A DNA stretch of 64,000 nt, from assembly GCF_902652985.1 (NCBI RefSeq), contig NC_047022.1:30595465-30659464 (forward strand), read 5' to 3'. The DNA comes from Pecten maximus (lineage: Eukaryota). Below are positions 3,596-63,520 of the stretch, in pieces. Numbering within the stretch: the stretch's first letter is position 1; every line of letters starts with the position of its first letter. The notes under the pieces were generated by a model, which was given only the letters and a program-made list of their open reading frames with translations, was not told the DNA's origin and searched no databases. Made by a program: the position numbers and the translations under genes.

Positions 3596-4420
3596 TGACT
3601 CTTTGCATCTTACCTCGTGTTCTCTGACCTCTTACCTCGTGTTCTCTGACCTCTTACCTTGTGTTCTCTGACCCCTTACCTTGTGTTCTCTGACCTCTTA
3701 CCTCGTGTTCTCTGACCTCTGACCTCGTGTTCTCTGACCTCGTGTTCTCTGACCTCTTACCTCGTGTTCTCTGACCCCTTACCTCATGTTCTCTGACCTC
3801 TTACCTCGTGTTCTCTGACCTCTTACCTTGTGTTCTCTGACCCCTTACCTTGTGTTCTCTGACCTCTTACCTTGTGTTCTCTGACCTCTTACCTCGTGTT
3901 CTCTGACCTCGTGTTCTCTGACCTCTTACCTCGTGTTCTCTGACCTCTTACCTCGTGTTCTCTGACCCCTTACCTCGTGTTCTCTGACCCCTTACCTTGT
4001 GTTCTCTGACCCCTTACCTTGTTTTCTCTGACCTCTTACCTTGTGTTCTCTGACCTCTTACCTCGTGTTCTCTGACCTCTTACCTCGTGTTCTCTGACCT
4101 CTTACCTCGTGTTCTCTGACCCCTTACCTCGTGTTCTCTGACCCCTTACCTTGTGTTCTCTGACCCCTTACCTTGTTTTCTCTGACCCCTCTCCTTGTGT
4201 TCTCCGACCCCTTATCATGTGTTCTCCGTCTACTTCCCTTATTATATCCAACCCCTTACCATTTGTTCTCCAACACCTTACCTTGTGTTCTCCAACACCT
4301 TACCTTGTGTTCTTTGACCCGATCCCTTATGATATCTTACCCCTTATCTTGTGTTCTCTGACCCCTTTCCTTGTGTTCTCCATTACCTCACCTTGTGTTC
4401 TTTAACCCCATCCCTGATGA
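3596..4420. repeat. 22-bp minisatellite (unit ctcttacctcgtgttctctgac), about 37 copies, in the DEPDC5 R-S intron
   Basis: Visible periodicity. The ORFs at 4151-4405 are artefacts of this array. Confidence 0.95.
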
Positions 4421-4461
4421 TCTCTGACACTTGACCTGGTATTCTGACCCCTGACCTTTAC

Positions 4462-8885: not shown

Positions 8886-10262
8886 CGATAGTAAATATTA
8901 CACCACACAAAGATTTGTCAGGAAGGTACATACTATTACCTGTTTGTGAGAAAGAATATTACACCACACAAAGATTTGTCAGGAAGGTACATAACTATAC
9001 CTGTTTGTGAGAGTGAATATTACACCACATTAAGATTTGGTCAGGAAGGTACATTATTATACCTGTTTGTGAGAGTGAATATTACACCACACAAAGATTT
9101 GTCAGGAAGGTACATAACTATACCTGTTTGTGAGAGTGAATATTACACCACATTAAGATTTGGTCAGGAAGGTACATTATTATACCTGTTTGTGAGAGTG
9201 AATATTACACCACACAAAGATTTGTCAGGAAGGTACATAACTATACCTGTTTGTGAGAGTGAATATTACACCACACAAAGATTTGTCAGGAAGGTACATA
9301 ACTATACCTGTTTGTGAGAGTGAATATTACACCACATTAAGATTTGGTCAGGAAGGTACATTATTATACCTGTTTGTGAGAGTGAATATTACACCACACA
9401 AAGATTTGTCAGGAAGGTACATAACTATACCTGTTTGTGAGAGTGAATATTACACCACACAAAGATTTGTCAGGAAGGTACATAACTATACCTGTTTGTG
9501 AGAGTGAATATTACACCACACAAAGATTTGTCAGGAAGGTACATAACTATACCTGTTTGTGAGGGTGAATATTACACCACACAAAGATTTGTCAGGAAGG
9601 TACATAACTATACCTGTTTGTGAGGGTGAATATTACACCACACAAAGATTTGTCAGGAAGGTACATAACTATTACCTGTTTGTGAGAGTGAATATTACAC
9701 CACATTAAGATTTGTCAGGAAGGTACATAACTATACCTGTTTGTGAGGATAATTACACCACACAAAGATTTGTCAGGAAGGTACATAACTATTACCTGTT
9801 TGTGAGAGTGAATATTACTGTAACACCACATTAAGATTTGTCAGGAAGGTACATAACTATACCTGTTTGTGAGGGTAATTACACCACACAAAGATTTGTC
9901 AGGAAGGTACATAACTATTACCTGTTTGTGAGAGTGAATATTACTGTAACACCACACAAAGATTTGTCAGGAAGGTACATAACTATACCTGTTTGTGAGA
10001 GTGAATATTACACCACATTAAGATTTGTCAGGAAGGTACATAACTATACCTGTTTGTGAGAGTGAATATTACACCACATTAAGATTTGTCAGGAAGGTAC
10101 ATAACTATACCTGTTTGTGAGGGTGAATATTACACCACATTAAGATTTGGTCAGGAAGGTACATAACTATACCTGTTTGTGAGGGTGAATATTACACCAC
10201 ATTAAGATTTGGTCAGGAAGGTACATAACTATACCTGTTTGTGAGAGTGAATATTACACCTC
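8886..10262. repeat. 60/61-bp minisatellite (unit ..tattacaccacacaaagatttgtcaggaaggtacataactatacctgtttgtgagagtgaa), about 22 copies, in the DEPDC5 M-N intron
   Basis: Direct repeats with a variant sub-motif (cacattaagatttgg versus cacacaaagatttg). The ORFs at 8946-10059 are artefacts. Confidence 0.95.
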
Positions 10263-10288
10263 ACTAATACTACATCTTTCACACTTAC

Positions 10289-10924: not shown

Positions 10925-12235
10925 TACGATTCTACAAGACCCCCATGTTCACCACTTATAACACAGCCTGTGATGACCCCCATGTTCATCCCTTATAGCA
11001 TGGCCTGTGATGACCCCCATGTTCACCCCTTATAACATGGCCTGTGATGACCCCCATGTTCCCCCTTATAACATGGCCTGTGATGACCCCAATGTTCACC
11101 CCTTATAACACGGCCTGTGATGACCCCAATGTTCACCCCTTATAACACGGCCTGTGATGACCCTCATGTTCACCCCTTATAACACGGCCTGTGATGACCC
11201 CAATGTTCACCCCTTATAACACGGCCTGTGATGACCCCAATGTTCACCCCTTATAACACGGCCTGTGATGACCCTCATGTTCACCCCTTATAACACGGCC
11301 TGTGATGACCCCAATGTTCACCCCTTATAACACGGCCTGTGATGACCCCATGTTCACCCCTTATAACATGGCCTGTGATGACCCCCATGTTCCCCCCTTA
11401 TAACACGGCCTGTGATGACCCCAATGTTCACCCCTTATAACACGGCCTGTGATGACCCCCATGTTCACCCCTTATAACACGGCCTGTGAAGACCTTAATG
11501 TTCACCCCTTATAACACGGCCTGTGATGACCCTCATGTTCACCCCTTATAACACGGCCTGTGATGACCCCCATGTCCCCCCTTATAACACGGCCTGTGAT
11601 GACCCCCATGTTCCCCCCTTATAACACGGCCTGTGATGACCCCGATGTTCACCCCTTATAGCATGGCCTGTGATGACCCCCATGTCCCCCTTATAACACG
11701 GCCTGTGATGACCCCCATGTTCCCCCCTTATAACACAGCCTGTGATGACCCCCATGTCCCCCCTTATAACACGGCCTGTGATGACCCCCATGTCCCCCCT
11801 CATAACACGGCCTGTGATGACCCCCATGTTCCCCCTTATAACATGGCCTGTGATGACCCCCATGTTCCCCCCTTATAACACGGCCTGTGATGACCCCCAT
11901 GTTACCCCCTTATAACATGACCTGTGATGACCCCCATGTTCCCCTCTTATAACACAACCTGTGATGACCCCCATGTTTACCCCTTATAACATGGCCTGTG
12001 ATGACCCCCATGTCCCCCCCTTATAACACGGCCTGTGATGACCCCCATGTTACCCCCTTATAACATGACCTGTGATGACCCCCATGTTCCCCTCTTATAA
12101 CACAACCTGTGATGACCCCCATGTTTACCCCTTATAACACGGCCTGTGATGACCCCCATGTTCCTTCCTCATAACACGGCCTGTGATGACCCCCATTGTT
12201 CACCCCTTATAACATGGCCTGTGATGCACATCAGC
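10925..12235. repeat. 38-bp minisatellite (unit ccccatgttcaccccttataacacggcctgtgatgac), about 34 copies, in the DEPDC5 K-L intron
   Basis: Visible periodicity. The ORFs at 11582-11900 are artefacts. Confidence 0.95.
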
Positions 12236-19019: not shown

Positions 19020-19560
19020 TAGAATGTTCCCCGAAGGCAGGGATGACAACTAAACTGCCTATTAAGTCCCAAGCCATACAACTAAACTACCTATTAAGTC
19101 CCTAGCCATACAACTAAACTACCTATTAAGTCCCTAGCCATACAACTAAACTACCTATTAAGTCCCTAGCCATACAACATTCTCTGATGGCAGGGATGGC
19201 AACTAAACTGTATACATGTATTAAGTTCATAGCCATACCTGCAGCCTCAAAAGGATAAGATGACATCTAAATAACATATGAAGGTCATAACCATACAACA
19301 TCTTCAAAAGACAGAGATGACAACTAAACTGTCTATTAAGTCTGATCTATAGCCATATGGCATCCTCAGAAGACAGGGATGACAACTGAACTGCCTTTTA
19401 AGGCCTTCACCATACAACAGTATCGAAAGGCAGAAGATGACAGCTTTATTACATATTAAGGTCATAGCCATACCACAGCTTCTGAATCACAAGGTAGAGA
19501 TGACAACTAAACTGCATATTAAGGTCATAGCCAGACAATGAATGACAACTAAACAGCCTA
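19020..19560. repeat. Imperfect minisatellite of about 31 bp (..aactaaactacctattaagtccctagccatac..), degenerate at its edges
   Basis: Repeated 'gatgacaactaaactgcctattaag.c..agccatac' blocks. Confidence 0.8.
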
Positions 19561-20217: not shown

Positions 20218-20690
20218 AGTTATGGTAACCTTATTTTCAACATCATAAGGTTGATGATATGACCTTGTCAAAATCATAAGGTTGGTGATATGACCTTGTT
20301 AAAATCATAAGGTTGGTGATATGACCTTGTTAAAATCATAGGGTTGGTGATATGACCTTGTTAAAATCATAAGGTTGATGATATGACCTTGTCCACATCA
20401 TAAGGTTGATGATATGACCTTGTCCACCATCATAAGGTTGATGATATGACCTTGTTAAAATCATAGGGTTGGTGATATGACCTTGTCCACATCATAAGGT
20501 TGGTGATATGACCTTGTCCACATCATAAGGTTGATGATATGATCTTGTCCACATCATAAGGTTGATGATATGACCTTGTCCACATCATAAGGTTGATGAT
20601 ATGACCTTGTCCACATCATAAGGTTGGTGATATGACCTTGTCCACATCATAAGGTTGATGATATGACCTTGTCCACATCATAACGTTGAT
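20218..20690. repeat. 31-bp minisatellite (catcataaggttgatgatatgaccttgtcca), about 15 copies, in the DEPDC5 B-C intron
   Basis: Visible periodicity. Confidence 0.95.
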
Positions 20691-39649: not shown

Positions 39650-40610
39650 CTCTGTAGAGTATACTGTTTCCTGAACTACATTTGGTAAATATAAAGAGTA
39701 TAACCTACCCGTTTCCTGGCCAGACCCAATGACATAACAGCCTCTACGAGGGTTGTGTAGGAGTATAACCTACCTGTTTCCTGGGCCAGACTTGATGACA
39801 TGACAGCCTCTGTGAGGGTTGTGTATATAGGAGTATAACCTACCTGTTTCCTGGGCCAGACCCAATGACATAACAGCCTCTACGAGGGTTGTGTAGGAGT
39901 ATAACCTACCTGTTTCCTGGGCCAGACTTGATGACATGACAGCCTCTGTGAGGGTTGTGTATATAGGAGTATAACCTACCCGTTTCCTGGGCCAGACTTG
40001 ATGACATGACAGCCTCTGTGAGGGTTGTGTATATAGGGGTATAACCTACCTGTTTCCTGTGTCAGACTTGATGACATGACAGCCTCTGTGAGGGTTGTGT
40101 ATATAGGGGTATAACCTACCCGTTTCCTGGGCCAGATTTGATGACATGACAGCCTCTGTGAGGGTTGTGTATATAGGGGTATAACCTACCTGTTTCCTGG
40201 GCCAGACTTGATGACATGACAGCCTCTGTGAGGGTTGTGTATATAGGGGTATAACCTACCTGTTTCCTGTGCCAGACTTGATGACATGACAGTCTCTGTG
40301 AGGGTTGTGTATATAGGAGTATAACCTACCTGTTTCCTGTGCCAGACTTGATGACATGACAGCCTCTGTGAGGGTTGTGTATATAGGGGTATAACCTACC
40401 TGTTTCCTGTTCCAGACTTGATGACATGACAGCCTCTGTGAGGGTTGTGTATATAGGGTTATAACCTACCTGTTTCCTGTGCCAGACTTGATGACATGAC
40501 AGCCTCTGTGAGGGTTGTGTATATAGGGGTATAACCTACCTGCTTCCTGTGCCAGACTTGATGACATGACAGCCTCTGTGAGGGCTGGGTGTATTGATAT
40601 TCCTCCCTGG
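39650..40610. repeat. 70-bp tandem array, about 13 copies (unit ataacctacctgtttcctgggccagacttgatgacatgacagcctctgtgagggttgtgtatataggggt)
   Basis: Period 70 confirmed from line offsets. The unit is a copy of the last ~31 nt of the adjacent coding exon (40540-40660) plus its GT donor. Confidence 0.95.
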
Positions 40611-42739: not shown

Positions 42740-44082
<1,343 letters not shown>

Positions 44083-44771
44083 ACAAAAAGCTCCATTATC
44101 TTTTATTTTTCAATTTTCCTTTTCTTTTTTCCCCCACAAAATTACACATTTTATCGAAAGTTATTTAAGCAATCTTCTAGGCGATAAGTTTGAGATGGAC
44201 ATTTTGAAAATTGCTCCAGTGTAATAAAAAGAACAAAGAAAAATGCACAATCTGCATTAAAAAAATTACATTACTTTGTAGATTATGATTTCCTGGGACT
44301 CCGAAAATATTTGCAAAACAAAATGATGTGAAAAGATAATTCATCCTGCTTCGACAACTTCATCTCAGTATTTAAGTGACAAGAAGTTATGAAATTTAAC
44401 GTTTAGTGGAAGGACTTCAGGAAAAGGTAATTTTCTAGTTGCATGCTATACTTTTAATTTTACTGATTGTGAATTTGTTGACATAGAAAGAATTTTTTAT
44501 AGGAAGATTATAGAAGTAATGATCATGTGTGTATTTATTTTGAAACATTTATTTTATGTTATTCAGTTTGAGGATTGGTAAACTTAATGTAATTGTCACT
44601 TGTCGGTTATTTCCCTGACTTGAATATTTTCAGGTAAAATATGGTCACCTGGATGCTGGAAGTGATGCACTAATTTCAGGTGTGTGTGCAAAGTGAAGAT
44701 TAATCATTGATTTGTGGACGAGAAAGGATTGCTTCAAAATTGTTATTTGGTGTGGAAATATTCTCATCACC

Positions 44772-45118
44772 ATGACAACCAAAATATTTCAAAGACAAGT
44801 ATTGCAAATATGGAAACCAGGACGATTGCAAAATATACATAAATCAGCATTGTGTTTTACATCAAGGCAAAATTCAAGTCTCACAGCTAACACACAAACT
44901 TGCCAAGGCCAGAGTTTTTCTCCTGATTCCCAGGTGAGGGGGTACTCCTCCTCAACTGGAAGACAGAAGTTAGTGATCCTAGGGTCAGGATGGGGCAGTT
45001 ATTCTGTCCTTAAAACCATTGACAAGAAAAAGTTTGATGTTGTGGTTGTTAGTCCACGGAACCACTTCCTGTTCACGCCTCTCTTGGCAAGTACCACTGT
45101 TGGGACATTGGAGTTCAG
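44772..45118 (+). CDS. NDH-2 (NDI1-like alternative NADH dehydrogenase), exon 1: N-terminal presequence plus first dinucleotide-binding motif ([51 protein letters not shown])
   Basis: ATG at 44772, in frame with ORF 44712..45167. Donor TTCAG|gtacaa. Matches yeast NDI1 '[47 protein letters not shown]'. Confidence 0.88.
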
Positions 45119-45531
45119 GTACAAATTAACGCAAAAAGTACATTCTAAGTTAAATATTTTGAACTAATTCTCTCAAAAATAGATATTTTAAGTTCAGATA
45201 ATACATTCATACTGTAGTATTGTAAATTGATTGACTTTGAAAAGCAAATATTTTCTATCAAATTTTCTGTCAATCCTAATTTATTTCAGTGAGTCAGGTT
45301 TACATCCAATACTGAGGAAGAGGCTAGATGAAGCCTAGATTGTTCATGTTTCACCAAGTTATGTAATGTTGTGAGATTCACATATTACAATACATGCATC
45401 AGATGTTAAAATTCTATTGTGATGAAATTTTCAATATTTCAGCAAAAATTGAGGTCATAATTTACAATGAGCATTGGAAGTTTAGACACTTTGTATGATA
45501 ATTAATTGATTACACAATTATATATTATTAG

Positions 45532-45757
45532 ATCTATAATTGAGCCGGTGAGGAACACAGGATTCAGACAGACAGATCATTTCCATCTGTCCTATGCTGA
45601 GAGTTTAGATATGAAGAAGAAGTTAATAAGATGTGAGAGTGTCCTGGACTCCAGTATCAAGTATGACCTGGAGTATGACAAACTTGTCATTGGTGTCGGA
45701 GCGCTTAGCAACACATTTAACATACCAGGGGTCAGGGAAAATTCTTTCTTCCTCAAG
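45532..45757 (+). CDS. NDH-2 exon 2 (SIIEPVRNTGF..YDKLVIGVGALSNTFNIPGVRENSFFLK)
   Basis: Acceptor ttattag|, donor CTCAAG|gtatat. Anchored to ORF 45506..45823. Matches NDI1 '[34 protein letters not shown]'. Confidence 0.9.
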
Positions 45758-46891
45758 GTATATCTGCTTCTTGATTTTTTTGGTTTTTTAGTTAACATCC
45801 TATTAACAGCCAGGGTCATTTAAGGACGAGCCAGGATTTCTCCTTTGTCTTCTGTCCAGGAGTCATTTGAAAGCACAAGAAAAAGGCCCACTGTTATTAT
45901 ATAAGCCTGTATCCCACTGCATGTTGATTAGAAGGTGACTAAAAGTGGGCCCACTAATTCGGGGAATTTTCCATGTCTTCTTTTTAGGGGACATTGAAGA
46001 GACCAAAATGGATCCTCTGCCCCCATTGCAATACATGGGATCTTAAATCTTGCCTTACTGTTCTCTTTCTGTATTACATTTCTTTGTCTCCTTGGCACAC
46101 GTCCTCATATGACCCTGACTGTTGGGAGGATGTTAAACAACTAAAAAAAAAAAAAAAATGCTTCACACAATTACAGTGTAGTTCTTAAGACATGAGCCAT
46201 CTGTCCTAATTGAATGGTGTCTTATATGTATCAAATAAGTTACAGTACATTTATGAACATCTTTAATTCTTTTGTAGACTGTTGAAGATAACTTGCTGTC
46301 TTATAATATGTCCTTGAAGGAGTGATAAAACCTAAGGAGATATATAGTGTCATGTTTAATTTTTAGATTAATAACAAAATAGTGTATGATCTATTCTCTA
46401 CTCCCTGATAAGATCCATGTTAGCTTTAGAAGATCTCTTAGGAAGTTGATAGTAATCAATGTTCGATTAAGTTGCTTCATATTTCATGATTTGAAATCTA
46501 TGTACATGTATTAGTCCATAGTGTGTTGAGATTAGGAACAGTCCATCACTGTAAGTTTAGAAAGCTTAAGTCAATGTTTGAGATTTAGAGACCCTATTAT
46601 TTGGGTCCAGAATTAGTCAAAATAATTTTCTATACAGTACAAATATTTTGATTTCTTCTATTTCTTTAATCTATAAAGTCATTGAAATGACATTATTTCC
46701 TTTACAAGAGTCCTATTACATGCATTTATTGTTATTTACAGTACATTTGTTATATTTTACTTTTGTTTAACTTTCCATCATTTTATCAATATCTATTTCA
46801 GTATGTAATTTAAAAGTACTAACTTTGAAAATAAATTATATTTGCAAAATGACCTTGTTAAGAAATATGTACATATTTTTGTATTACAAAG

Positions 46892-47062
46892 GAAGTGGCA
46901 GATGCCAGAAAGATACGGAACCGGATTCTGTCGAACTTCGAGTTGTCTATACAACCTGGTATTACTTATGAGGAGGCTAAGAGACTTTTACACTTCGTTA
47001 TTGTTGGAGGTGGACCAACTGGGGTGGAGTTTGGAGCAGAGTTGTATGACTTTGTGGAACAG
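46892..47062 (+). CDS. NDH-2 exon 3 (EVADARKIRNRILSNFELSIQPGITYEEAKRLLHFVIVGGGPTGVEFGAELYDFVEQ), second Rossmann GxGxxG motif
   Basis: Acceptor ttacaaag|, donor GAACAG|gtaagt. Matches NDI1 'LSFVVVGGGPTGVEFAAEL'. Confidence 0.9.
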
Positions 47063-47465
47063 GTAAGTTTTTTTTTTTTTAATTATATTTATTTTTCATA
47101 GAAATATAATACAATTTTTCTTCTAAATTTTTCTATTTAATGACTGATTTAAAGATAGGTAAAAGTTAAAATAAGTTTTATCAAACACATTTAATTTATA
47201 TATCATGACATAATTGTCAGAGGCCCGTTTAACAAAGTTGTTAGTTCCACTGTTATCAGAACTAGCCGGGTAAACTAAAAATCATGAATCTTGTAGAACT
47301 TGAAAACTTGAGGTATATCTAAATTATGAAATGCAAGCAGATACTTATGCTGTCAAGATTGATAAAACATCTTTTGACAAAGGCACTTTCAAAATAGTTA
47401 AAGAAGTTTTTTAGGAGTGAATAGCGGAGAAGAAGTAATGAGTGAGCAGTCTTTCTGGTTTTTAG

Positions 47466-47625
47466 GATGTGTCTAGACTGTACAAACAGAAGCAGTATGA
47501 GGTTAGGGTCACACTCATTGAATCCAACCAGATCCTTGGCTCTTTTGATGAACGTCTCAGAAATTATGCAGAAAAGAAGATTAGAGAGCGAAACAGGTTT
47601 ACCCTGTTACAGTCCGCTGTCACTG
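47466..47625 (+). CDS. NDH-2 exon 4 (DVSRLYKQKQYEVRVTLIESNQILGSFDERLRNYAEKKIRERNRFTLLQSAVT)
   Basis: Acceptor tttttag|, donor CACTG|gtaaat. Phase-consistent. Confidence 0.8.
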
Positions 47626-48015
47626 GTAAATCTTCAGGTTGAATCAGGAATTGGCACAACCCTAACTTCTTTTGAATGTTGGAACATGCATTTATTTAAC
47701 CATATTGTTCTAGAACAACTTTAAGAGGATTTATACAATTTTGCAGTCACAATATCATTTTATTACATAACATAACGTAATTTTAGAATGTACAATGTAT
47801 ACGTATATATACATTGTGTTAGTATGTTACTAACCTTGAGGACCCCTTGGGAGATAAGCTAAAGACTAAATGAAGTTTTACATCCCCAATAAATAAAGTT
47901 TATTATGATTATTGTTATTAGAAAACCCTGGTATACTTTGTATGATTTTGGGGAAAATGTAGCAAAAATTATTGAAATGTACCAGTTGATAGCTATGAAA
48001 TGATATGATTTACAG

Positions 48016-48146
48016 AGGTTAAGTCAGACCGGGTGGTCCTGAAGGATGGTAGTACTCTGCCATGTGGTTTGGTGGTTTGGAGCACGGGCGTGGCTCCTAG
48101 ACCTTTTGTAAAGTCGCTGGATGTCCCTAAAAATAAACAGGGACAG
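48016..48146 (+). CDS. NDH-2 exon 5 (EVKSDRVVLKDGSTLPCGLVVWSTGVAPRPFVKSLDVPKNKQGQ)
   Basis: Acceptor gatttacag|, donor GACAG|gtaagt. Matches NDI1 'IPYGVLVWATGNAPREV'. Confidence 0.85.
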
Positions 48147-48491
48147 GTAAGTTTTTCAGAGTTCAGTCATTTATGTTCTTTATTACATAGCATTTATAGT
48201 TAATAGCTGATAAGTTTAAATTAAGATTCAATAATACATATTTTTTGCAAATACTGCATGAGGATTATTTTTAATAGTTAAAAAGTTCATTTTTAGATTA
48301 ATTTATTACATAGGATGGTAAATGAGGAATCAAGTGTAAAAAACTGTCTGTCTTGACACTTTTATGATTATGATCTGGAAACTAAAGACAGAGATCAATA
48401 ATAACATACTTCTGGGGGTGTACATTTCATATCTAATTCATATACAAAGTAATGTTTCAGCTTGAAAGAAGTATCATGTATCATTGGATAG

Positions 48492-48599
48492 ATTCTGACG
48501 GACGAGTACCTGAATGTATTGGGTGATTCCACTGGGAGTGTGTTTGCCCTAGGTGACTGTGCTGATATAGAAACAATGCCCCTCCCGTGTACAGCACAG
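48492..48599 (+). CDS. NDH-2 exon 6 (ILTDEYLNVLGDSTGSVFALGDCADIETMPLPCTAQ)
   Basis: Acceptor ttggatag|, donor ACAG|gtaatt. Position fixed using the antisense ORF 48395..48619 as an anchor. Matches NDI1 '[23 protein letters not shown]'. Confidence 0.85.
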
Positions 48600-49022
48600 G
48601 TAATTTGAAAATTTGACAACCAAGATATTCATAAAATTTTTCAATACTCCAGATGTAAAACCGAGAGACAAACTACACTTTTCCAGATTTATCTGTTTAT
48701 ACTTTGCTAACATTGTTGTTCCGTTGCTATTTTCATTTTGTTATTTGAAAATAACCATGAAATTTTATGCAAGTTTCAATTAAAGCAAATATATGATGAA
48801 TGTGTAAACCCGTGTCATTTCTGAATTAAGTTATTAGAACTCAATGAACAATAATTAATTTTTCTTTGTTTTCATGGTAAATACTCAAATGTGAAATGAA
48901 AGTGAAATCAGCACCACTGATTTATCATATATTAAACCTATTTTCACATGACCAAGATATTTATAAGATGGACAGGGATACATGTGTATGCATTAGTCAG
49001 CTTTATTTTAAACATATTGAAG

Positions 49023-49170
49023 GTTGCTGAGAGGGAAGGAAGATACCTAGCTAAACAGCTAATTACAGGAGATCCCAAATCTGAGCCTTTCAAGTTCCAG
49101 AGCATGGGAATGCTGGCGTATATTGGTCGGTACCAAGGTCTGACAGATGTCCCACAGGTCAAGATGCAAG
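49023..49170 (+). CDS. NDH-2 exon 7 (VAEREGRYLAKQLITGDPKSEPFKFQSMGMLAYIGRYQGLTDVPQVKMQ)
   Basis: Anchored to ORF 48948..49271. Donor CAAG|gtaaga. Matches NDI1 'VAHQEGEYLAQ..KGALAYIG'. Confidence 0.88.
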
Positions 49171-50233
49171 GTAAGATAAGTATAAAATATATATGTAGTA
49201 TAAAGTCCAGGGGAACTATCACTATACTCCCTGCGTTGATGAAAAGTGATCTCCTGTTCATTTGTTGGTAACAAATTCAAATATTAAGTAAGAAGCTTGA
49301 TTTATTATAAACCAATGAAATTCAATTAATTTTTGTTTTTCTTGATTGGAAGTCAAAACGTGTAGAGGGTATATTTAGAGTTAAAGTTTAGAGCAATCTT
49401 ATTAAGATAAGACTTGCAATTTCTGCTCCTCTACGATACACTGCATTATACAAGGTCTAACAATACCCCATAGGTCATCTCAGCAGTGACCTTTGATCTC
49501 AGCCAATAAGTGTGCCTCCTACGATATTGTCAGTGTGATTTCATTCTTCGGAAGTATAAATACGAGGTGTTCCGATGGTTGATAGCAACGGTACACAATA
49601 TGGCTTTGCCCATGGTATCACCGAGAACATCTGAACGAATCTGTAGTTTAACAAACGTTTGCTGCCTGTGTGGTTTTTCCTTCATCATACTAGAGATATA
49701 CAGTGAAGGCAACAAAATCTATAATAATATCAAGTTTGAAAGGGAATAACATGTACGGTAGCAATTTTCCAAATCCAGTTGGTGATACAATCTATCTCGT
49801 CAACAAGATATTGTATAATCCTTTTCAGTTCTTCTTTTAATGTAATGTCCAAAAGATTAGCAACTTTTTTTATGACTGTGGCCATTAAGATTGTCCACAA
49901 ATAATGTTTGTGAAATTTTGCGTATTTCAAATCAAGGGCTTGTTCGTAAATACTAAAGAGATGCAACCGAAGGTTTGTATTAAACTCTTTTTCATTGGTT
50001 GACTAATGACATCATTGACCAGTTTTCATTGGCTTATATTTGAAGCTGAAAGGTCATGTTGAAATGACCTACAGCAGGATATTCTTAGATATTGCATTGC
50101 TGTGTATGGTAGAGGAGCAGGAAATTACAAGTCTAATTTTAATTATATTGAAGTTTAGAGCTTTCTACTGTGAATTTATAGAATGATGTACATTTACCTG
50201 GAAAAAACACTGTAAAATCTTATCATTTTTCAG

Positions 50234-50364
50234 GATTCACTTCCTGGTTACTTTGGCGCTCTGCCTATCTCACTCGTCTGGGAAGCTGGAGGCTGAGGAT
50301 GCAGGTACCACTGGATTGGTTAAAAACCATTCTGTATGGACGGGATGTGTCTCGATTCGAGTGA
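50234..50364 (+). CDS. NDH-2 terminal exon (GFTSWLLWRSAYLTRLGSWRLRMQVPLDWLKTILYGRDVSRFE*)
   Basis: Acceptor catttttcag|, stop TGA at 50362-50364. Matches the NDI1 C-terminus '[40 protein letters not shown]'. Confidence 0.88.
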
Positions 50365-50640
50365 ATATTTCAAGTTCTATTGAAAGCCATCAGGAATGTA
50401 TGGATGAAATGTCTCTTGAATCTCATGAAAATTTCTCATTCAGTAGAAAGTCAGCAATTCTTTATGGATGGGATATGTCTTGATTGGAATGAACATTAAT
50501 TTCTAATTCTTAAAAAAAGCTGTCATGAATGTATGGACAGAATGCATCCCAGTTTGAATGAACATTTCTCGTTCAATAGAAAGACCTTCAATTCTTTATG
50601 GAGGGGATGTGTCTTGATTCAAGTGAGAACTTTTGAAACG
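50300..50640. repeat. Tandem triplication of about 130 bp, covering the end of the NDH-2 terminal exon, its stop codon and proximal 3'UTR
   Basis: Three copies of ..attctttatgga[tg]gggat[ag]tgtcttgatt[cg][ag]a[ag]tga.. at about 50320, 50455 and 50588. Confidence 0.8.
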
Positions 50641-52934
50641 GATTGCTGTACAGTAGAAATATCATGGATTAGAATTCCTTAGAGTTTTTCTGTGAACACA
50701 GTGAATCAGATATATTCACAGCTCGTTGTGTTGAACATACCTCTGTAACTGTACCTGGTAGCTATCATAACTATAATTATTAATGAACCAAGTTCATGTA
50801 ATTTGAAAAATCATTCAAGTTGATTCAAGGGTCTTTTTTTAAGGGATTTGGATCCATTAATATTCGGAATATTGTGATGTTGTAAAGTGTTTCAGGGTGT
50901 AAAGCAGAGTTAATGGCTGATGTTCCCAGTGTGAATGATCAAAAGTGTGTGTAGTAGGTAGTCCTCAGGAATATTAATATTTGAGTCTCTGATTTTTTTC
51001 TATACCAAAATATGTTTTTCATGTCTCTATATAATAATTCATGGATAATATGAAATTATGAGTTCACTCAAAATATAAGTGCTTGTTATTTATGCAATGA
51101 TGTCGTATCCATTGTTGTTTTTTGTCAACATTTCCTTACAATAATTGTTTCTACAGAACCACAATACCAAGGACCATGATATTGTTTGTTGTAGCATTTT
51201 CTAACTCCTTTAGATAATTATGCAAGAAAAAGAAGGAATAAATTGTAAGATTAAAATTGTAAACCTACTTACATATTACTAAGGAGGGGAGAGGAGCCAA
51301 CGTCAGATGGAAATCAGTGGGTCTTCTAAGTGTGGAAATTCGCGTTGAGTATGGATACCTTAAAAGGTATGCTGGACAGTTCAAGCAAATAGACTAATTA
51401 TAAACAAGGGAAAATAACCGCAACATACTCACGCTTAACCGATAAGTGGAGATTTTATTGGACTACTAGTTTCGACCCTATCGCAGGGTCTTCATCAGGA
51501 CAATTTTTTCATAAAAGTTTCCCAATATTCGATTGTTAAATATGATGTAATACTAATAGTAAATAAAGGGCAGATAATTGCCTTATGTTTATACCTTTAA
51601 CCAGTCTTTGAATGTAATTAAAATTAATTAACAGTGTTCATTTGTTTTTCCAATGGTTCATTCCTTCTCATCCGGACAGATAGTATGTGTACTTACATAT
51701 AAATTGTATGTATTAATTTTTTACATTGTCAAGTACAGTGTAATGAATTTATAAATTTGTTAAACTTTTCTCATATTTACAGTTATATTACTCTCTAAAG
51801 AGTTTGAAGTAGACAATTCAAACACTTTCATCAAATCAAGTGCCTTGCAATGAGTAAAGGTGTAGATTCATGACATAGGAGAAATGTTACCATTAATATG
51901 ACATGCATATTTTTATGAAGTCCAATTTGATCATATTATAGCAAACATTTTTTCCATAAGTGCTTCATGTTGCATCTCATTATTTAATTTGCTTCTCTAT
52001 AGTTTAATATTGGAAATATGAATGTAATGATCTAGGGCCTGTTCGTTTATGCGGACAAACTGGTTCGTCTGTTTTTAAATGTAATATTTCAAACATATAT
52101 CTTGACGGACCTGCAAATGTTAATACAGGCCTTGGGAGTCTTTGTCAAGGCTCGTCTGAAAACAATAAAAAATCAACAGGTCCGGTTTATTTCTTAAACA
52201 AACAACATCAGTCCAAGTGGTCTAACCGTTTGGACCGCAAAAACGAAAACGGCCCTAATGACAAAGTTCTTGATTACCTCCCCTGGAAACGTGAACTTGT
52301 TCACCTTGTTCTCACAGGAGGTTGTAGTTAACCTCTGTTTGAATGTGATTTGTATGTTAATGTTTTTCTCAAGTAAGATACTATAAAGGTAAGAATTGTA
52401 TAATTCAAATTATAATGCATACTGTTCAAAGGAATCCCCTACAAAATGTTGAGCATTATACATCTTGTATGCTTTCTTTTCACCCGGTGATTTCCTTGAT
52501 CAATACAAATGAATTCCAAAATTACGGGTTCTTTCTATTTAGAATTTTACACAACATATAAATATGTTTAATCAAATCAACAAGATTGATGTATTTGATT
52601 TCAAATACCCATAATGGTATTTCTTTATTATTGTATTTATTTACTAAAAGGTTTATTTTTATCAACTTGTCTGTGTTTTATCATGTTAATGGACTTTATG
52701 ATTATCAGCATATGTAAATTATGATAGTAATTTACAAATATTTATCCAAATAGAAACCACTTTAAATGTTTCAAATGAGGATCATTAAAATATTTATAGA
52801 ATTTTATTTAGTTTTCCCTTGCTTTTTTTTTTTTACAGAAATACATAATTCTTTAATCCTCAATAGCCTTCCTTGTGTCTAGAGAAACAAATACCTGGTT
52901 ATTATTGGAAGATAATATAGAATATATTTTTGTC

Positions 52935-54020
52935 TATAGATATACATGTTACGTACGAGAATCCTAAATCACTTTCCCTTATGTCTACAGAAATACATGT
53001 TACTGGAATCTTCCATCATCTTCCCTTATGTCTACAGAAATGCATGTTAATGGAATCCTCATTCAACTTCAATCATGTCTACAGAAATACACATGAGTGG
53101 AATCTTTTCAACCACCTCCCCTTATGTCTACAGAAATACACATTACTGGAATCTTCAATCCCCTTCCCTTGTGTCTACAGAAATACACATTACTGGAATC
53201 TTCAATCCCCTTCCCTTGTGTCTACAGAAATACACATTACTGGAATCTTCAATCCCCTTCCCTTGTGTCTACTGAAATACACATTACTGGAATCTTCAAT
53301 CGCCTTCCCTTGTGTCTACTGAAATACACATTACTGGAATCTTCAATCGCCTTCCCTTATGTCTACAGAAATACACATTACTGGAATCTTCAATCCCCTT
53401 CCCTTGTGTCTACTGAAATACACATTACTGGAATCTTCAATCCCCTTCCCTTGTGTCTACTGAAATACACATTACTGGAATCTTCAATCGCCTTTCCTTG
53501 TGTCTACAGAAATGCATGTTAATGGAATCCTCATTCAACTTCAATCATGTCTACAGAAATACACATGACTGGAATCTTTTCAACCACCTCCCCTTATGTC
53601 TACAGAAATACACATTACTGGAATCTTCAATCCCCTTCCCTTATGTCTACAGAAATACACATTACTGGAATCTTCAATCCCCTTCCCTTGTGTCTACAGA
53701 AATACATATTACTGGAATCTTCAATCCCCTTCCCTTGTGTCTACTGAAATACACATTACTGGAATCTTCAATCGCCTTCCCTTGTGTCTACAGAAATACA
53801 CATTACTGGAATCTTCAATCCCCTTCCCTTGTGTCTACAGAAATACACATTACTGGAATCTTCAATCGCCTTCCCTTGTGTCTACAGAAATACACATTAC
53901 TGGAATCTTCAATCCCCTTCCCTTGTGTCTACTGAAATACACATTACTGGAATCTTCAATCGCCTTCCCTTGTGTCTACAGAAATACACATTACTGGAAT
54001 CTTCAATCCCCTTCCCTAGG
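52935..54020. repeat. 47-bp minisatellite (ccttcccttgtgtctacagaaatacacattactggaatcttcaatcc), about 23 copies
   Basis: Visible periodicity. The ORFs at 52930-54126 are artefacts. Confidence 0.95.
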
Positions 54021-56657: not shown

Positions 56658-57029
56658 CTGCACAACACAAAAATGAACACAATTACCCAACAAGATGATG
56701 AAAGTGAAGATTTCTAAGACTGAAAAGTTTTCTGCATTAAATATCTTTGAAGAAAATCCGAAAGCATAATGTCATTAGGTCACTGGACTGAAAAGATGAG
56801 ATAATAATTGTGAAACACAAATTAGTGGGATGCACTGTACCTCCCTGACAAGTGTGATAAACTATTTCTCAATGTATCTCACTGAGAAGCTTATCATGTT
56901 TATCTGCATTAAAGCTCTGTCCCACAAATATGTCCCTTTCTGTATCTTTGCAGAATCATCAATTTTATTAAGTGGTTCATAAATAAGCTCTCCTCAAGTT
57001 TTAATAATTTTTACACTAGGTTTACTTGA

Positions 57030-57790
57030 GGGTAAATATGGTACTAAAATTGTTCATTAGGGGAGGGGGATTATTTGAGGATAAATATGGTACTAAAATT
57101 GTTCATTAGGGGAGGGGGATTATTTGAGGGTAAATATGGTACTAAAATTGTTCATTAGGGGAGGGGGATTATTTGAGGGTAAATATGGTACTAAAATTGT
57201 TCATTAGGGGAGGGGGATTATTTGAGGGTAAATATGGTACTAAAATTGTTCATTAGGGGAGGGGGATCATTTGAGGGTAAATATGGTACTAAAATTGTTC
57301 ATTAGGGGAGGGGGATCATTTGAGGGTAAATATGGTACTAAAATTGTTCATTAGGGGAGGGGGATTATTTGAGGGTAAATATGGTACTAAAATTGTTCAT
57401 TAGGGGAGGGGGATCATTTGAGGGTAAATATGGTACTAAAATTGTTCATTAGGGGAGGGGGATTATTTGAGGGTAAATATGGTACTAAAATTGTTCATTA
57501 GGGGAGGGGGATTATTTAGGGTAAATATGGTACTAAAATTGTACATTAGAGGAAAGGGGTTATTTGAGGATAAATAGATACAAAAATTGTACATTTTGAA
57601 GAGTTTATTTAAGGATTAATAGGGTACAGAAATTGTACACTGGAAGGGGGGGGGGGGGGGGGGGTGTTATTCGAGGATAAATAGGGTACAAAAATTGTAC
57701 ACTAATGGAGGGGGGTAATTTGAGGATAAATAAGTACAAAAATAGTACACTTTGAAGTGTTTATTTGAGGATTGATAGGGTACACAAATT
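57030..57790. repeat. Minisatellite of about 50 bp (ggggagggggattatttgagggtaaatatggtactaaaattgttcatta), about 11 copies, plus divergent transition copies
   Basis: Same repeat family as the following 48-bp array but a distinct variant. Confidence 0.9.
57646..57663. repeat. Poly-G homopolymer (G18)
   Basis: Read directly from the sequence. Confidence 0.99.
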
Positions 57791-60405
57791 GTACTCAAGA
57801 GGAGGGGGAGTTATTTGAGGATAAATATGGAACTAAAATTGTACTCTAGAGGAGAGAGTTATTTGAGGATAAATATGGAACTAAACTTGTATTCTAGAGG
57901 AGGGGTTTATTTGAGGATAAATATGGAACTAAAATTGTATTCTAGAGGAGGGGTTTATTTGAGGATAAATATGGAACTAAAATTGTACTCTAGAGGAGGG
58001 GTTTATTTGAGGATAAATATGGAACTAAAATTGTACTCAAGAGGAGGGAGTTATTTGAGGATAAATATGGAACTAAAATTGTACTCAAGAGGAGGGGGAG
58101 TTATTTGAGGATAAATATGGAACTAAAATTGTACTCTAGAGGAGAGAGTTATTTGAGGATAAATATGGAACTAAACTTGTACTCAAGAGGAGGGGTTTAT
58201 TTGAGGATAAATATGGAACTAAAATTGTATTCTAGAGGAGGGGTTTATTTGAGGATAAATATGGAACTAAAATTGTATTCTAGAGGAGGGAGTTATTTGA
58301 GGATAAATATGGAACTAAAATTGTACTCAAGAGGAGGGGTTTATTTGAGGATAAATATGGAACTAAAATTGTACTCAAGAGGAGGGAGTTATTTGAGGAT
58401 AAATATGGAACTAAAATTGTATTCTAGAGGAGGGGTTTATTTGAGGATAAATATGGAACTAAAATTGTATTCTAGAGGAGGGGTTTATTTGAGGATAAAT
58501 ATGGAACTAAAATTGTACTCTAGAGGAGGGGTTTATTTGAGGATAAATATGGAACTAAAATTGTACTCAAGAGGAGGGAGTTATTTGAGGATAAATATGG
58601 AACTAAAATTGTACTCAAGAGGAGGGGGAGTTATTTGAGGATAAATATGGAACTAAAATTGTACTCTAGAGGAGAGAGTTATTTGAGGATAAATATGGAA
58701 CTAAACTTGTATTCTAGAGGAGGGGTTTATTTGAGGATAAATATGGAACTAAAATTGTATTCTAGAGGAGGGGTTTATTTGAGGATAAATATGGAACTAA
58801 AATTGTACTCTAGAGGAGGGGTTTATTTGAGGATAAATATGGAACTAAAATTGTACTCAAGAGGAGGGAGTTATTTGAGGATAAATATGGAACTAAAATT
58901 GTACTCAAGAGGAGGGGTTTATTTGAGGATAAATATGGAACTTAAATTGTACTCAAGAGGAGGGAGTTATTTGAGGATAAATATGGAACTAAAATTGTAT
59001 TCTAGAGGAGGGGTTTATTTGAGGATAAATATGGAACTAAAATTGTATTCTAGAGGAGGGGTTTATTTGAGGATAAATATGGAACTAAAATTGTACTCTA
59101 GAGGAGGGGTTTATTTGAGGATAAATATGGAACTAAAATTGTACTCAAGAGGAGGGAGTTATTTGAGGATAAATATGGAACTAAAATTGTACTCAAGAGG
59201 AGGGGTTTATTTGAGAATAAATATGGAACTAAAATTGTACTCAAGAGGAGGGGTTTATTTGAGGATAAATATGGAACTAAAATTGTACTCCAGAGGAGGG
59301 GTTTATTTGAGGATAAATATGGAACTAAAATTGTACTCAAGAGGAGGGGTTTATTTGAGAATAAATATGGAACTAAAATTGTATTCTAGAGGAGGGGGAG
59401 TTATTGGAGGATAAATATGGAACTAAAATTGTACTCAAGAGGAGGGGATTATTTGAGGATAAATATAGAACTAAAATTGTACTCTAGAGGAGGGGTTTAT
59501 TTGAGGATAAATATGGAACTAAAATTGTACTCTGGAGGAGGGGTTTATTTGAGGATAAATATGGAACTAAAATTGTACTCTAGAGGAGGGGATTATTTGA
59601 GGATAAATATGGAACTAAAATTGTACTCAAGAGGAGGGAGTTATTTGAGGATAAATATGGAACTAAAATTGTACTCAAGAAGAGGGAGTTATTTGAGGAT
59701 AAATATGGAACTAAAATTGTATTCTAGAGGAGGGGTTTATTTGAGGATAAATATGGAACTAAAATTGTACTCAAGAGGAGGGGTTTATTTGAGGATAAAT
59801 ATGGAACTAAAATTGTACTCAAGAGGAGGGGGAGTTATTTGAGGATAAATATGGAACTAAAATTGTACTCTAGAGGAGGGGATTATTTGAGGATAAATAT
59901 GGAACTAAAATTGTACTCTAGAGGAGGGGTTTATTTGAGGATAAATATGGAACTAAAATTGTACTCTAGAGGAAGGGGAGTTATTTTAGGATAAATATGG
60001 AACTAAAATTGTACTCTAGAGGAGGGGTTTATTTTAGGATAAATATGGAACTTAAATTGTACTCTAGAGGAGGGGTTTATTTGAGGATAAATATGGAACT
60101 AAAATTGTACTCTAGAGGAGGGGTTTATTTGAGGATAAATACGGAACTAAAGTTGTACACGTTTGGAGGGGATTATTTGAGGATAAAATACGGAGCTAAA
60201 ATTGTACACTATTGGAGTGGATTATTTGAGGATAAATATGGAACTAAAATTGTACTCTAGAGGAGGGGATTATTTGAGGATAAATATGGAACTAAAATTG
60301 TACTCTAGAGGAGGGGATTATTTGAGGATAAATATGGAACTAAAATTGTACACTATGGGAGGAGATTATTTGAAAGTAAATATGTTAGGTGTGATAAATT
60401 ATTTC
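57790..60405. repeat. 48-bp minisatellite (ggaggggtttatttgaggataaatatggaactaaaattgtactctaga), about 54 copies and 2.6 kb, in the gene X intron
   Basis: The 48-bp unit is a multiple of 3, which creates the long artefactual ORFs at 57815-60420. Confidence 0.95.
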
Positions 60406-63035: not shown

Positions 63036-63520
63036 GTTATTTTTTGTTTCTTTTTTTGTCAATCATATATGCTAAAATCTTTGAACGACTTCTTCTTGAT
63101 AACCAAAAGGCCCAGAGACCTAATATTGGGCCTGTAGCATGCTGGGATGAACGGCTACCAAGTTTGTTCAAATGGATGACCTTGACCTTCATTCAAGGTC
63201 AAAGGGGTCAAATATGAAAAAAATATTTGAACGACTTCTTCTTGATAACCAAAACGCCCAGAGACCCAATATTATATCTGTAGCATGCTGGGATGAAGGG
63301 CTACTAAGTTTGCTCAAATGGATGACCTTGACCTTCATTCAAGGTCACATGGGTCAAATATGCTAAAATCTTTAAATGACTTCTTCTTAATAACCAAAAG
63401 GTGCAGAGACCTGATATTGGGTCTGTAGCATGATGGGATGAAGGGCTACCAAGTTTGTTCGAATGAATGACCTTGACCTACATTCAAGGTCAAAGGGGTC
63501 AAATATGCTAAAATACATCA
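63036..63520. repeat. Tandem repeat of about 155 bp, 3 copies (..gaacgacttcttcttgataaccaaaaggcccagagacc..gatgaccttgaccttcattcaaggtcaaaggggtcaaatat..)
   Basis: Three diverged copies. Related 'tgacc..gtcaaggtcat' segments occur at 61960-62150 and 30540-30960. Confidence 0.85.

Follow-up and report, generated by a model that had tools for sequence, protein, structure and literature searches.

We analysed a 64,000-nucleotide (nt) stretch of the king scallop Pecten maximus genome (NCBI RefSeq assembly GCF_902652985.1, contig NC_047022.1, positions 30,595,465 to 30,659,464 of the forward strand), referred to below as the window and numbered from its first letter. In it lies a gene for an NADH:quinone oxidoreductase of type II (NDH-2), and the last nucleotides of the coding sequence (CDS) of this gene recur in tandem beyond its stop codon. 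The gene is already annotated in P. maximus and animal NDH-2 has been documented since 2011, so there is nothing new in the gene itself. With good confidence, we read the locus as this known gene joined at its 3' end to a degenerate minisatellite that is probably neutral.

The NDH-2 gene and its product

Fixing exon ends from splice sites and reading frame gave eight coding exons with GT-AG introns on the plus strand (44772–50364) (Table 1), which together form a 1422-nt open reading frame (ORF) of 473 amino acids (aa). In an exact-sequence look-up, the assembled protein proved identical over its full length to the RefSeq entry XP_033748227.1, annotated as "probable NADH dehydrogenase [Pecten maximus]." The same look-up gave no P. 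maximus transcript contig on record, and the structure of the 5' and 3' untranslated regions (UTRs) in P. maximus therefore rests on homology to RNA-seq contigs from the scallop Argopecten. Nucleotides 172–1422 of the CDS align to one such contig (L004) as a single ungapped high-scoring segment pair of 1251 nt at 84% identity. This alignment crosses seven of seven exon junctions, including the junction between exons 4 and 5 that the first-pass annotation had marked for checking. Two lines of evidence thus back the splice junctions, the orthologous transcript and the protein's exact match to RefSeq. Exon positions are common to P. maximus and the three other scallops that we compared (Mizuhopecten yessoensis, Argopecten irradians, and Ylistrum balloti), and the NDH-2 proteins of all four fall into one 90% cluster. 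A tblastn search of the window returned the eight exons alone, with no second NDH-2 copy and no pseudo-exons. The region is AT-rich (31%–34% G+C over 44–52 kb) and the introns are long, which points to a eukaryote. A correct eight-exon animal gene can be assembled by eye from the sequence. The earlier description of a complete eight-exon gene stands for the coding exons, to which the Argopecten transcripts add at least two non-coding 5' exons.

Table 1. Positions of genes, exons, repeat units, and tandem arrays in the window
Feature	Position	Strand	Content or evidence
Putative non-coding exon A, may be shared with ADAT2	42885–42925	+	Argopecten homology
ADAT2 (tRNA-specific adenosine deaminase 2)	43558–44082	+	Single coding exon, 174 aa, between exons A and B
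Putative non-coding exon B of NDH-2	44282–44426	+	Homologue at L003 3409–3528; AG acceptor and GT donor in Pecten
NDH-2 first coding exon	44634–45118	+	Acceptor 44633/44634, 138 nt of 5'UTR, ATG 44772; presequence-like N-terminus and first Rossmann motif GSGWGS
NDH-2 coding part of first exon	44772–45118	+	Splice sites, frame
NDH-2 coding exon 2	45532–45757	+	Splice sites, RefSeq protein, Argopecten transcript, tblastn
NDH-2 coding exon 3	46892–47062	+	Second Rossmann motif GGGPTG; Argopecten transcript
NDH-2 coding exon 4	47466–47625	+	Splice sites, Argopecten transcript
NDH-2 coding exon 5	48016–48146	+	Splice sites, Argopecten transcript
NDH-2 coding exon 6	48492–48599	+	End falls within AQVAER motif region
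NDH-2 coding exon 7	49023–49170	+	Splice sites, Argopecten transcript
NDH-2 coding exon 8	50234–50364	+	NDH2_C membrane-anchor helix, C-terminus ...LYGRDVSRFE, stop TGA 50362–50364
Repeat unit 1	50324–50387	+	Last 41 nt of CDS including stop, plus 23 nt of 3'UTR
Repeat unit 2	50388–50451	+	62%–65% identical to unit 1; post-stop half like Argopecten proximal 3'UTR
Repeat unit 3	50452–50520	+	72%–78% identical to unit 1; homologous frame AILYGWDMS*
Repeat unit 4	50521–50585	+	Pairs with unit 2; 77% over 56 nt to Argopecten CDS end and proximal UTR
Repeat unit 5	50586–50650	+	84% identical over 44 nt to Mizuhopecten CDS end
First canonical polyadenylation signals 3' of NDH-2 stop	51237–51255	+	AATAAA 51237, ATTAAA 51250; sequence inspection
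Tandem array	3609–4458		Period 22 nt
Tandem array	8890–10264		Period 61 nt
Tandem array	10938–12226		Period 37 nt
Tandem array	19046–19178		Period 32 nt
Tandem array	20240–20690		Period 31 nt
Tandem array	39698–40584		Period 70 nt
Tandem array	52959–54017		Period 47 nt
Tandem array	57019–60384		Period 48 nt, 69.5 copies; overlaps strong G-over-C skew at 56–60 kb
Tandem array	63063–63514		Period 145 nt

The protein carries the domains expected of the enzyme class proposed in the first-pass annotation. Three Pfam domains were matched: PF07992 Pyr_redox_2 (157.4 bits, cut-off 26.1; residues 66–387), PF22366 NDH2_C (54.4 bits, cut-off 27.7; residues 410–468, a region that pairs with residues 405–481 of yeast Ndi1), and Pyr_redox. 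Pfam returned no EF-hand, and compared with Ndi1 the protein has no insertion where one would carry it; by its domain content it would not be a Ca2+-dependent external NDH-2 of the plant NDB or fungal NDE type. Among solved structures, the top matches were Ndi1 and Plasmodium NDH2 (E ∼1e-64; 222 bits for Ndi1), followed by bacterial NDH-2 structures (E of 1e-23 to 1e-40). FSP1/AIFM2 matched part of the Pecten protein (E = 3e-10, 43 bits), and the remaining classes gave 1e-9 or weaker. The best matches are thus to NDH-2 and not to AIFM-type enzymes, CoA-disulfide reductases, or NADH oxidases, and the type II assignment is upheld.

To examine conserved motifs, we aligned the P. maximus protein with 15 other animal sequences (57%–88% identity to Pecten). 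Both of the dinucleotide-binding motifs reported earlier are present, GSGWGS at residues 71–76 (strictly GxGxxS; Ndi1 has GSGWGA) and GGGPTG at residues 230–235, and both are invariant or nearly so among the 16 sequences, in which AQVAER and the C-terminal ...GRD.S are likewise invariant. The quinone-site motif of NDH-2 is AQxAxQ. P. maximus reads AQVAER at residues 380–385, where Ndi1 reads AQVAHQ; the R is found in 16 of 16 animal sequences, so the variant belongs to the animal clade as such and is no defect of the Pecten gene. The N-terminal 58 aa have a composition that fits a mitochondrial presequence (seven K/R, one D/E, and 13 S/T), with an R-x-Y|S pattern at residues 56–59 and an amphipathic start (helical hydrophobic moment of 0.51 over the first 18 aa).

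These results support an animal NDI1-type NDH-2, and the gene is the single-copy orthologue of the animal alternative (type II) NADH dehydrogenase, named NDX in Ciona. Going by homology to Ndi1, the product would be an FAD flavoprotein of the monotopic kind: after import into mitochondria, its C-terminal amphipathic domain would anchor it on the inner membrane. There it would move electrons from NADH to ubiquinone without proton pumping, forming a rotenone-insensitive bypass of complex I; mechanism, mitochondrial location, membrane side, and activity are all predicted from sequence. We give next to no credence to the notions that the gene is a contaminant or pseudogene, or that it belongs instead with AIF-type, AIFM2(FSP1)-type, or other pyridine-nucleotide-disulfide oxidoreductases: the Pyr_redox_2 fold family is common to those enzymes and the Pecten protein, but Ndi1 scores 222 bits against 43 for FSP1 and NDH2_C is present, the ORF is intact with canonical introns and its Argopecten orthologue is transcribed, exon structure and synteny are kept in eight lophotrochozoan genomes, and contamination is ruled out by the spliceosomal introns together with the conserved synteny with ADAT2 (discussed below).

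A broader search returned 7015 homologues at E ≤ 1e-30, of which the top 120 are nearly all from invertebrate animals. Named matches in this top 120 include molluscs, annelids, brachiopods, nemerteans, echinoderms, hemichordates, tunicates, cnidarians, and flatworms, as well as Trichoplax, a sponge, spiders, scorpions, a horseshoe crab, a tardigrade, and some nematodes. No vertebrate or insect NDH-2 was found among the named matches of the top 120 (of 7015), in agreement with the stated lack of NDH-2 in vertebrates, which is textbook knowledge in the field. On the other hand, the suggestion that the gene is a clue to taxon or to hypoxia or sulfide physiology is weak, given that NDH-2 occurs in most animal phyla, vertebrates and insects apart, and that P. 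maximus is described as a hypoxia-vulnerable species (PMC12091870). The presence of NDH-2 in animal taxa (Matus-Ortega et al. 2011) and its proposed roles (reviewed by McDonald and Gospodaryov 2019) are covered in work cited in PMC7056681. Animal NDH-2 and alternative oxidase (AOX) are of applied interest as bypasses for respiratory-chain defects (PMC7056681, PMC10671337). The scallop orthologue adds nothing specific to such applications, and the result is of little consequence beyond housekeeping.

Tandem copies of the coding-sequence end

The array in P. maximus consists of five head-to-tail units of 64–69 nt (50324–50650) that are 62%–78% identical. A repeat search placed the five copy starts at 50333, 50397, 50461, 50530, and 50595 (the last running to 50648), with spacings of 64, 64, 69, and 65 nt. 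Compared to shuffled sequences, eight of the 10 unit pairs had z scores of 4.3–12.2 and the pair of units 3 and 4 had z = 3.0; semi-global alignment failed for units 4 and 5 (z = −1.0). Units 1, 3, and 5 are alike, as are units 2 and 4, resulting in two-unit blocks with a period of ∼129–134 nt and ∼75% identity. This ∼130-nt dimer arrangement explains why three copies were seen by eye: tandem copies of the CDS end, stop codon, and proximal UTR are real, but they amount to five degenerate units and not to the triplication first reported. Tandem Repeats Finder at score 30 did not report the array because its units are too diverged.

The array contains no AATAAA or ATTAAA in or between its copies, the first such signal standing at 51237, and the idea that one of the copies carries the polyadenylation site was accordingly dropped. 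If the signals at 51237 and 51250 are used, the whole array would lie within a 3'UTR of ∼0.9 kb. A 23-nt core pattern (up to three mismatches) occurs three times in the 64-kb window, always in the array, against zero expected. A dispersed repeat or transposon was rejected as the source of the unit, since the core pattern is confined to the array and the unit is homologous to the CDS end. An assembly artefact was also rejected: units differ by 22%–38% and hence do not represent a collapsed or duplicated read stack.

We then turned to relatives of P. maximus. In each of the four scallop genera examined, the NDH-2 stop is followed by copies of the CDS end, and every unit can be aligned with the others as well as with the four CDS ends. 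Counting the CDS copy, totals are two in Ylistrum (where one extra copy is recognizable), ∼3 in Argopecten, and ∼11 in Mizuhopecten. The array of M. yessoensis (L001 9242–9716) has 9.3 copies of a 51-nt unit with 94% matches, followed by a diverged terminal copy. Each Mizuhopecten copy keeps a TILSGRDVSVFE* pseudo-ORF. RNA contigs show that the ∼2 extra copies in Argopecten are transcribed as 3'UTR, one of them split by an insertion with inverted ends that resembles a miniature inverted-repeat transposable element (MITE) (L003 8740–8845; L004 1604–1694; L005 1728–1790). Introns of NDH-2 hold relatives of this element in the opposite orientation. The insertion is missing from an RNA contig of a different Argopecten RNA-seq run, which could be an allelic or between-sample polymorphism.

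Outside the scallops, the CDS-end repeat was not found in Pinctada (pearl oyster) or in Ostrea (flat oyster), the latter having an unrelated 38-nt array instead. In Ostrea edulis, ∼9 copies of this minisatellite lie in the NDH-2 3'UTR, starting ∼30 nt past the stop (L008 10960–11350). NDH-2 3'UTRs have thus gained tandem arrays independently in oysters and scallops. A second array was noted within the NDH-2 gene of Y. balloti (L002 7913–8763; 58 nt × 14.7 copies, 89% matches). Its unit joins the final ∼34 nt of exon 5 to the 5' splice site and the opening ∼24 nt of intron 5, which leaves the locus with ∼14 tandem copies of a donor site.

Sequence retained in the copies informed us about their age. 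The Mizuhopecten repeats hold GGACGGGATGTGTCT, the same as the Pecten CDS, whereas the Mizuhopecten CDS now reads GGGCGCGATGTGTCT with two synonymous sites changed, suggesting that the duplication came before those synonymous changes. The non-coding junction CATCAGGA is common to three scallop genera, and the first duplication probably predates the divergence of these genera. A ∼64-nt unit (41 nt of CDS end and ∼23 nt of UTR) would have duplicated in tandem in the scallop ancestor, after which copies would have expanded, homogenised, or decayed independently in each lineage, presumably via replication slippage or unequal exchange. The first copy alone would be under protein-level constraint, and the others would most likely be neutral passengers of the 3'UTR.

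Several lines of evidence favour this neutral minisatellite. The array has units of 64–69 nt arranged head to tail, within the 10–100 nt typical of minisatellites, most of its unit pairs score well above shuffles, and copy number varies among relatives. The 62%–78% identity of the copies to the constrained first copy corresponds to neutral decay at ∼0.3–0.45 substitutions per site, which is of the same order as half the distance between Pecten and Argopecten at four-fold sites (p = 0.49; Jukes–Cantor distance 0.8) and thus argues for neutrality. The predicted RNA fold of 50320–50655 is unexceptional (z = −0.99), with 19 of 100 shuffles at least as stable. A structured RNA element was rejected on the basis of this fold score and the lack of any Rfam match at the gathering threshold over 43000–52000.

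Some observations pull the other way. NDH-2 introns are not alignable between scallop genera and four-fold sites are ∼50% diverged, yet short non-coding parts of the units are 84%–96% alike across genera. Ylistrum TAGAATGTCATCAAGACTATTCTGT and Mizuhopecten TAGAATGTCATCAGGACTATTCTGT agree at 24 of 25 positions, and the UTR half of Pecten unit 2 agrees with the Argopecten proximal UTR at ∼21 of 25, both being hand counts over short segments picked by eye. Such likeness hints at constraint on the proximal 3'UTR, or at ongoing turnover or conversion from the constrained first copy, over plain decay. In addition, the extent of the P. maximus 3'UTR is itself inferred from homology.

The same likeness of non-coding parts would also fit a reading of the units as a selected, multi-copy cis-regulatory element of the 3'UTR that has been kept through the scallop family, and that could offer sites to RNA-binding proteins or small RNAs for mRNA stability, translation, or targeting to the mitochondrial surface. 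Copies past the stop in four out of four scallop genera, lying inside the transcribed 3'UTR in Argopecten, are in line with this. We nevertheless consider such an element unlikely. Copy number (two to 11), unit length (51 nt vs. 64–69 nt), and sequence vary widely among genera; beyond the CDS-derived part, every alignment column varies in at least one unit; there is no excess RNA structure and no Rfam match; and an Argopecten copy is broken by the MITE-like insertion, with the uninterrupted version appearing in another RNA-seq run. Minisatellites are moreover abundant in this genome, and the Ylistrum array that spans an exon boundary of NDH-2 is a further example. A PUF/Puf3-type motif was rejected by inspection: UGUAUGGA has just the UGUA core in common with UGUANAUA.

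It is far less plausible still that downstream copies are coding and yield variant NDH-2 C-termini, through alternative terminal exons or read-through of the stop codon, even though the reading frame runs on past the TGA over 44 open codons in Pecten (a run of at least 44 has a chance of ∼0.03 at the stop-codon frequency of introns), 181 in Mizuhopecten (through an array whose 51-nt unit is divisible by three), and 49 in Ylistrum. Read-through was largely refuted by the stop that Argopecten meets after eight codons, by a frame across the CATCAGGA junction that differs between Pecten and Mizuhopecten with no peptide conserved, and by Pecten unit lengths of 64, 64, 69, and 65 nt that are not multiples of three. 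The RefSeq protein also terminates at the first stop, and an alternative terminal exon would be without the invariant membrane-anchor helix because the duplicated segment begins 41 nt before the stop.

The neutral minisatellite therefore remains our preferred reading, and the array offers a tidy case of a minisatellite whose seed lay across a stop codon and whose history can be traced through four genera. It also calls for caution, as tandem copies of exon ends are common in scallop genomes and should be taken neither for gene duplications nor for alternative exons.

The upstream neighbour and other repeats in the window

Directly upstream of NDH-2 and on its strand lies ADAT2, identified by its match to human ADAT2 (3dh1; E = 1.8e-64) and to the TadA family. 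Using tblastn, we found ADAT2 in the same position and orientation at seven further loci: Mizuhopecten, Ylistrum, Argopecten, Pinctada, Ostrea, the abalone Haliotis, and the brachiopod Lingula. The end of ADAT2 and the NDH-2 ATG are separated by 231 nt in Ostrea, 334 nt in Haliotis, 374 nt in Pinctada, 941 nt in Lingula, and 639–785 nt in the three scallops other than Pecten. ADAT2 was not found within 8 kb of NDH-2 in Asterias or Nematostella.

Transcripts suggest that the two genes may be linked. Three Argopecten contigs (L004, L005, and L006) have exon B spliced to the first NDH-2 coding exon, and positions 44257–44337 of the window are, unlike the introns, conserved in all three other scallops. 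Contig L005 further joins the homologue of exon A (L003 ∼998–1044, donor GTAATG) to exon B, with GT-AG sites in the genome. The exon A region is 78% identical between Argopecten and the window over 321 nt, and the GTAATG donor is kept in Pecten. An AG acceptor stands just 5' of the ADAT2 ATG, and AATAAA (44223) and ATTAAA (44256) occur shortly before exon B. A compound unit is thus conceivable, although we regard it as somewhat doubtful, in which both genes would share a single promoter and first exon lying upstream of ADAT2, and NDH-2 would be the downstream half. Exon A would then splice either to the ADAT2 coding exon, which has its own polyadenylation signals, or over ADAT2 to NDH-2. We treat the shared transcription unit as a lead and not a finding, because the A-to-B junction comes from a single contig. 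The head-to-tail pairing, seen in bivalves, an abalone, and a brachiopod, would date to the base of Lophotrochozoa or before. Of the observations made here, the pairing is the only one that might reward modest further work.

We also noted a ∼68-nt block (CGTCATTGAAATTTGCCTACATAAAAGCCTTG..TACGTCACTTCCGTTCTTTACAGCGTTGC) immediately 5' of exon A (42820–42885) that is near-invariant in the four scallop genera. It contains ACGTCACTTCCG and an ETS/GABP-like ACTTCCG. Its likely role is that of a core promoter, either for the ADAT2/NDH-2 unit or for a divergent neighbour.

Tandem repeats are plentiful elsewhere in the window, with nine large minisatellite or satellite arrays (periods of 22–145 nt) making up ∼15% of its length (Table 1). 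Minisatellites of the kind found at the NDH-2 3' end are very common in scallop genomes. Two mobile-element-like sequences lie in NDH-2 introns. Intron 2 contains a MITE-like element of ∼380 nt (45775–46153) with 54-nt inverted arms (78% complementary) and a 3' run of A16, and intron 7 contains two 26-nt inverted repeats (88% complementary) on either side of ∼650 nt (49420–50123), which is probably another non-autonomous DNA transposon.

Comparison with known systems

Among known systems, NDX of Ciona intestinalis is the animal enzyme whose function has been tested, through expression in Drosophila (Gospodaryov et al. 2014, cited in PMC7056681). NDX belongs to the same orthologous group as the Pecten protein, with the same domain order, 58% identity in the 16-sequence alignment, and both AQVAER and the ...GRD.SRF C-terminus in common; it is from another phylum and its presequence region is not alignable. 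S. cerevisiae Ndi1 (PDB 4G6G and related) matches over residues 64–469 (E = 1.5e-64), including the Rossmann motifs and the membrane-anchor domain, but has insertions that the Pecten protein is without and reads AQVAHQ and GSGWGA in place of AQVAER and GSGWGS, AQVAER being found in all 16 animal sequences. Several animal orthologues bear the automatic name "internal alternative NAD(P)H-ubiquinone oxidoreductase" after plant NDA1/NDA2, a name given by similarity alone; the NDA type and Pecten NDH-2 both lack an EF-hand domain. FSP1/AIFM2 and AIF belong, like the Pecten protein, to the Pyr_redox_2 flavoprotein superfamily with two dinucleotide-binding domains, and their match to it is distant and partial. 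We know of no NDH2_C domain in FSP1/AIFM2 or AIF.

For the proposed shared first exon of ADAT2 and NDH-2, the arrangement can be likened to the cholinergic ChAT/VAChT locus. The 3' repeat, with units of 51–69 nt, resembles ordinary bivalve minisatellites (units of 10–100 nt) in its head-to-tail units and species-variable copy number, in the Mizuhopecten array with its uniform centre and diverged edge copies, and in the many unrelated arrays nearby. It differs from them in that its seed unit spans a stop codon, with the first copy fixed by protein-level selection and the rest free to drift.

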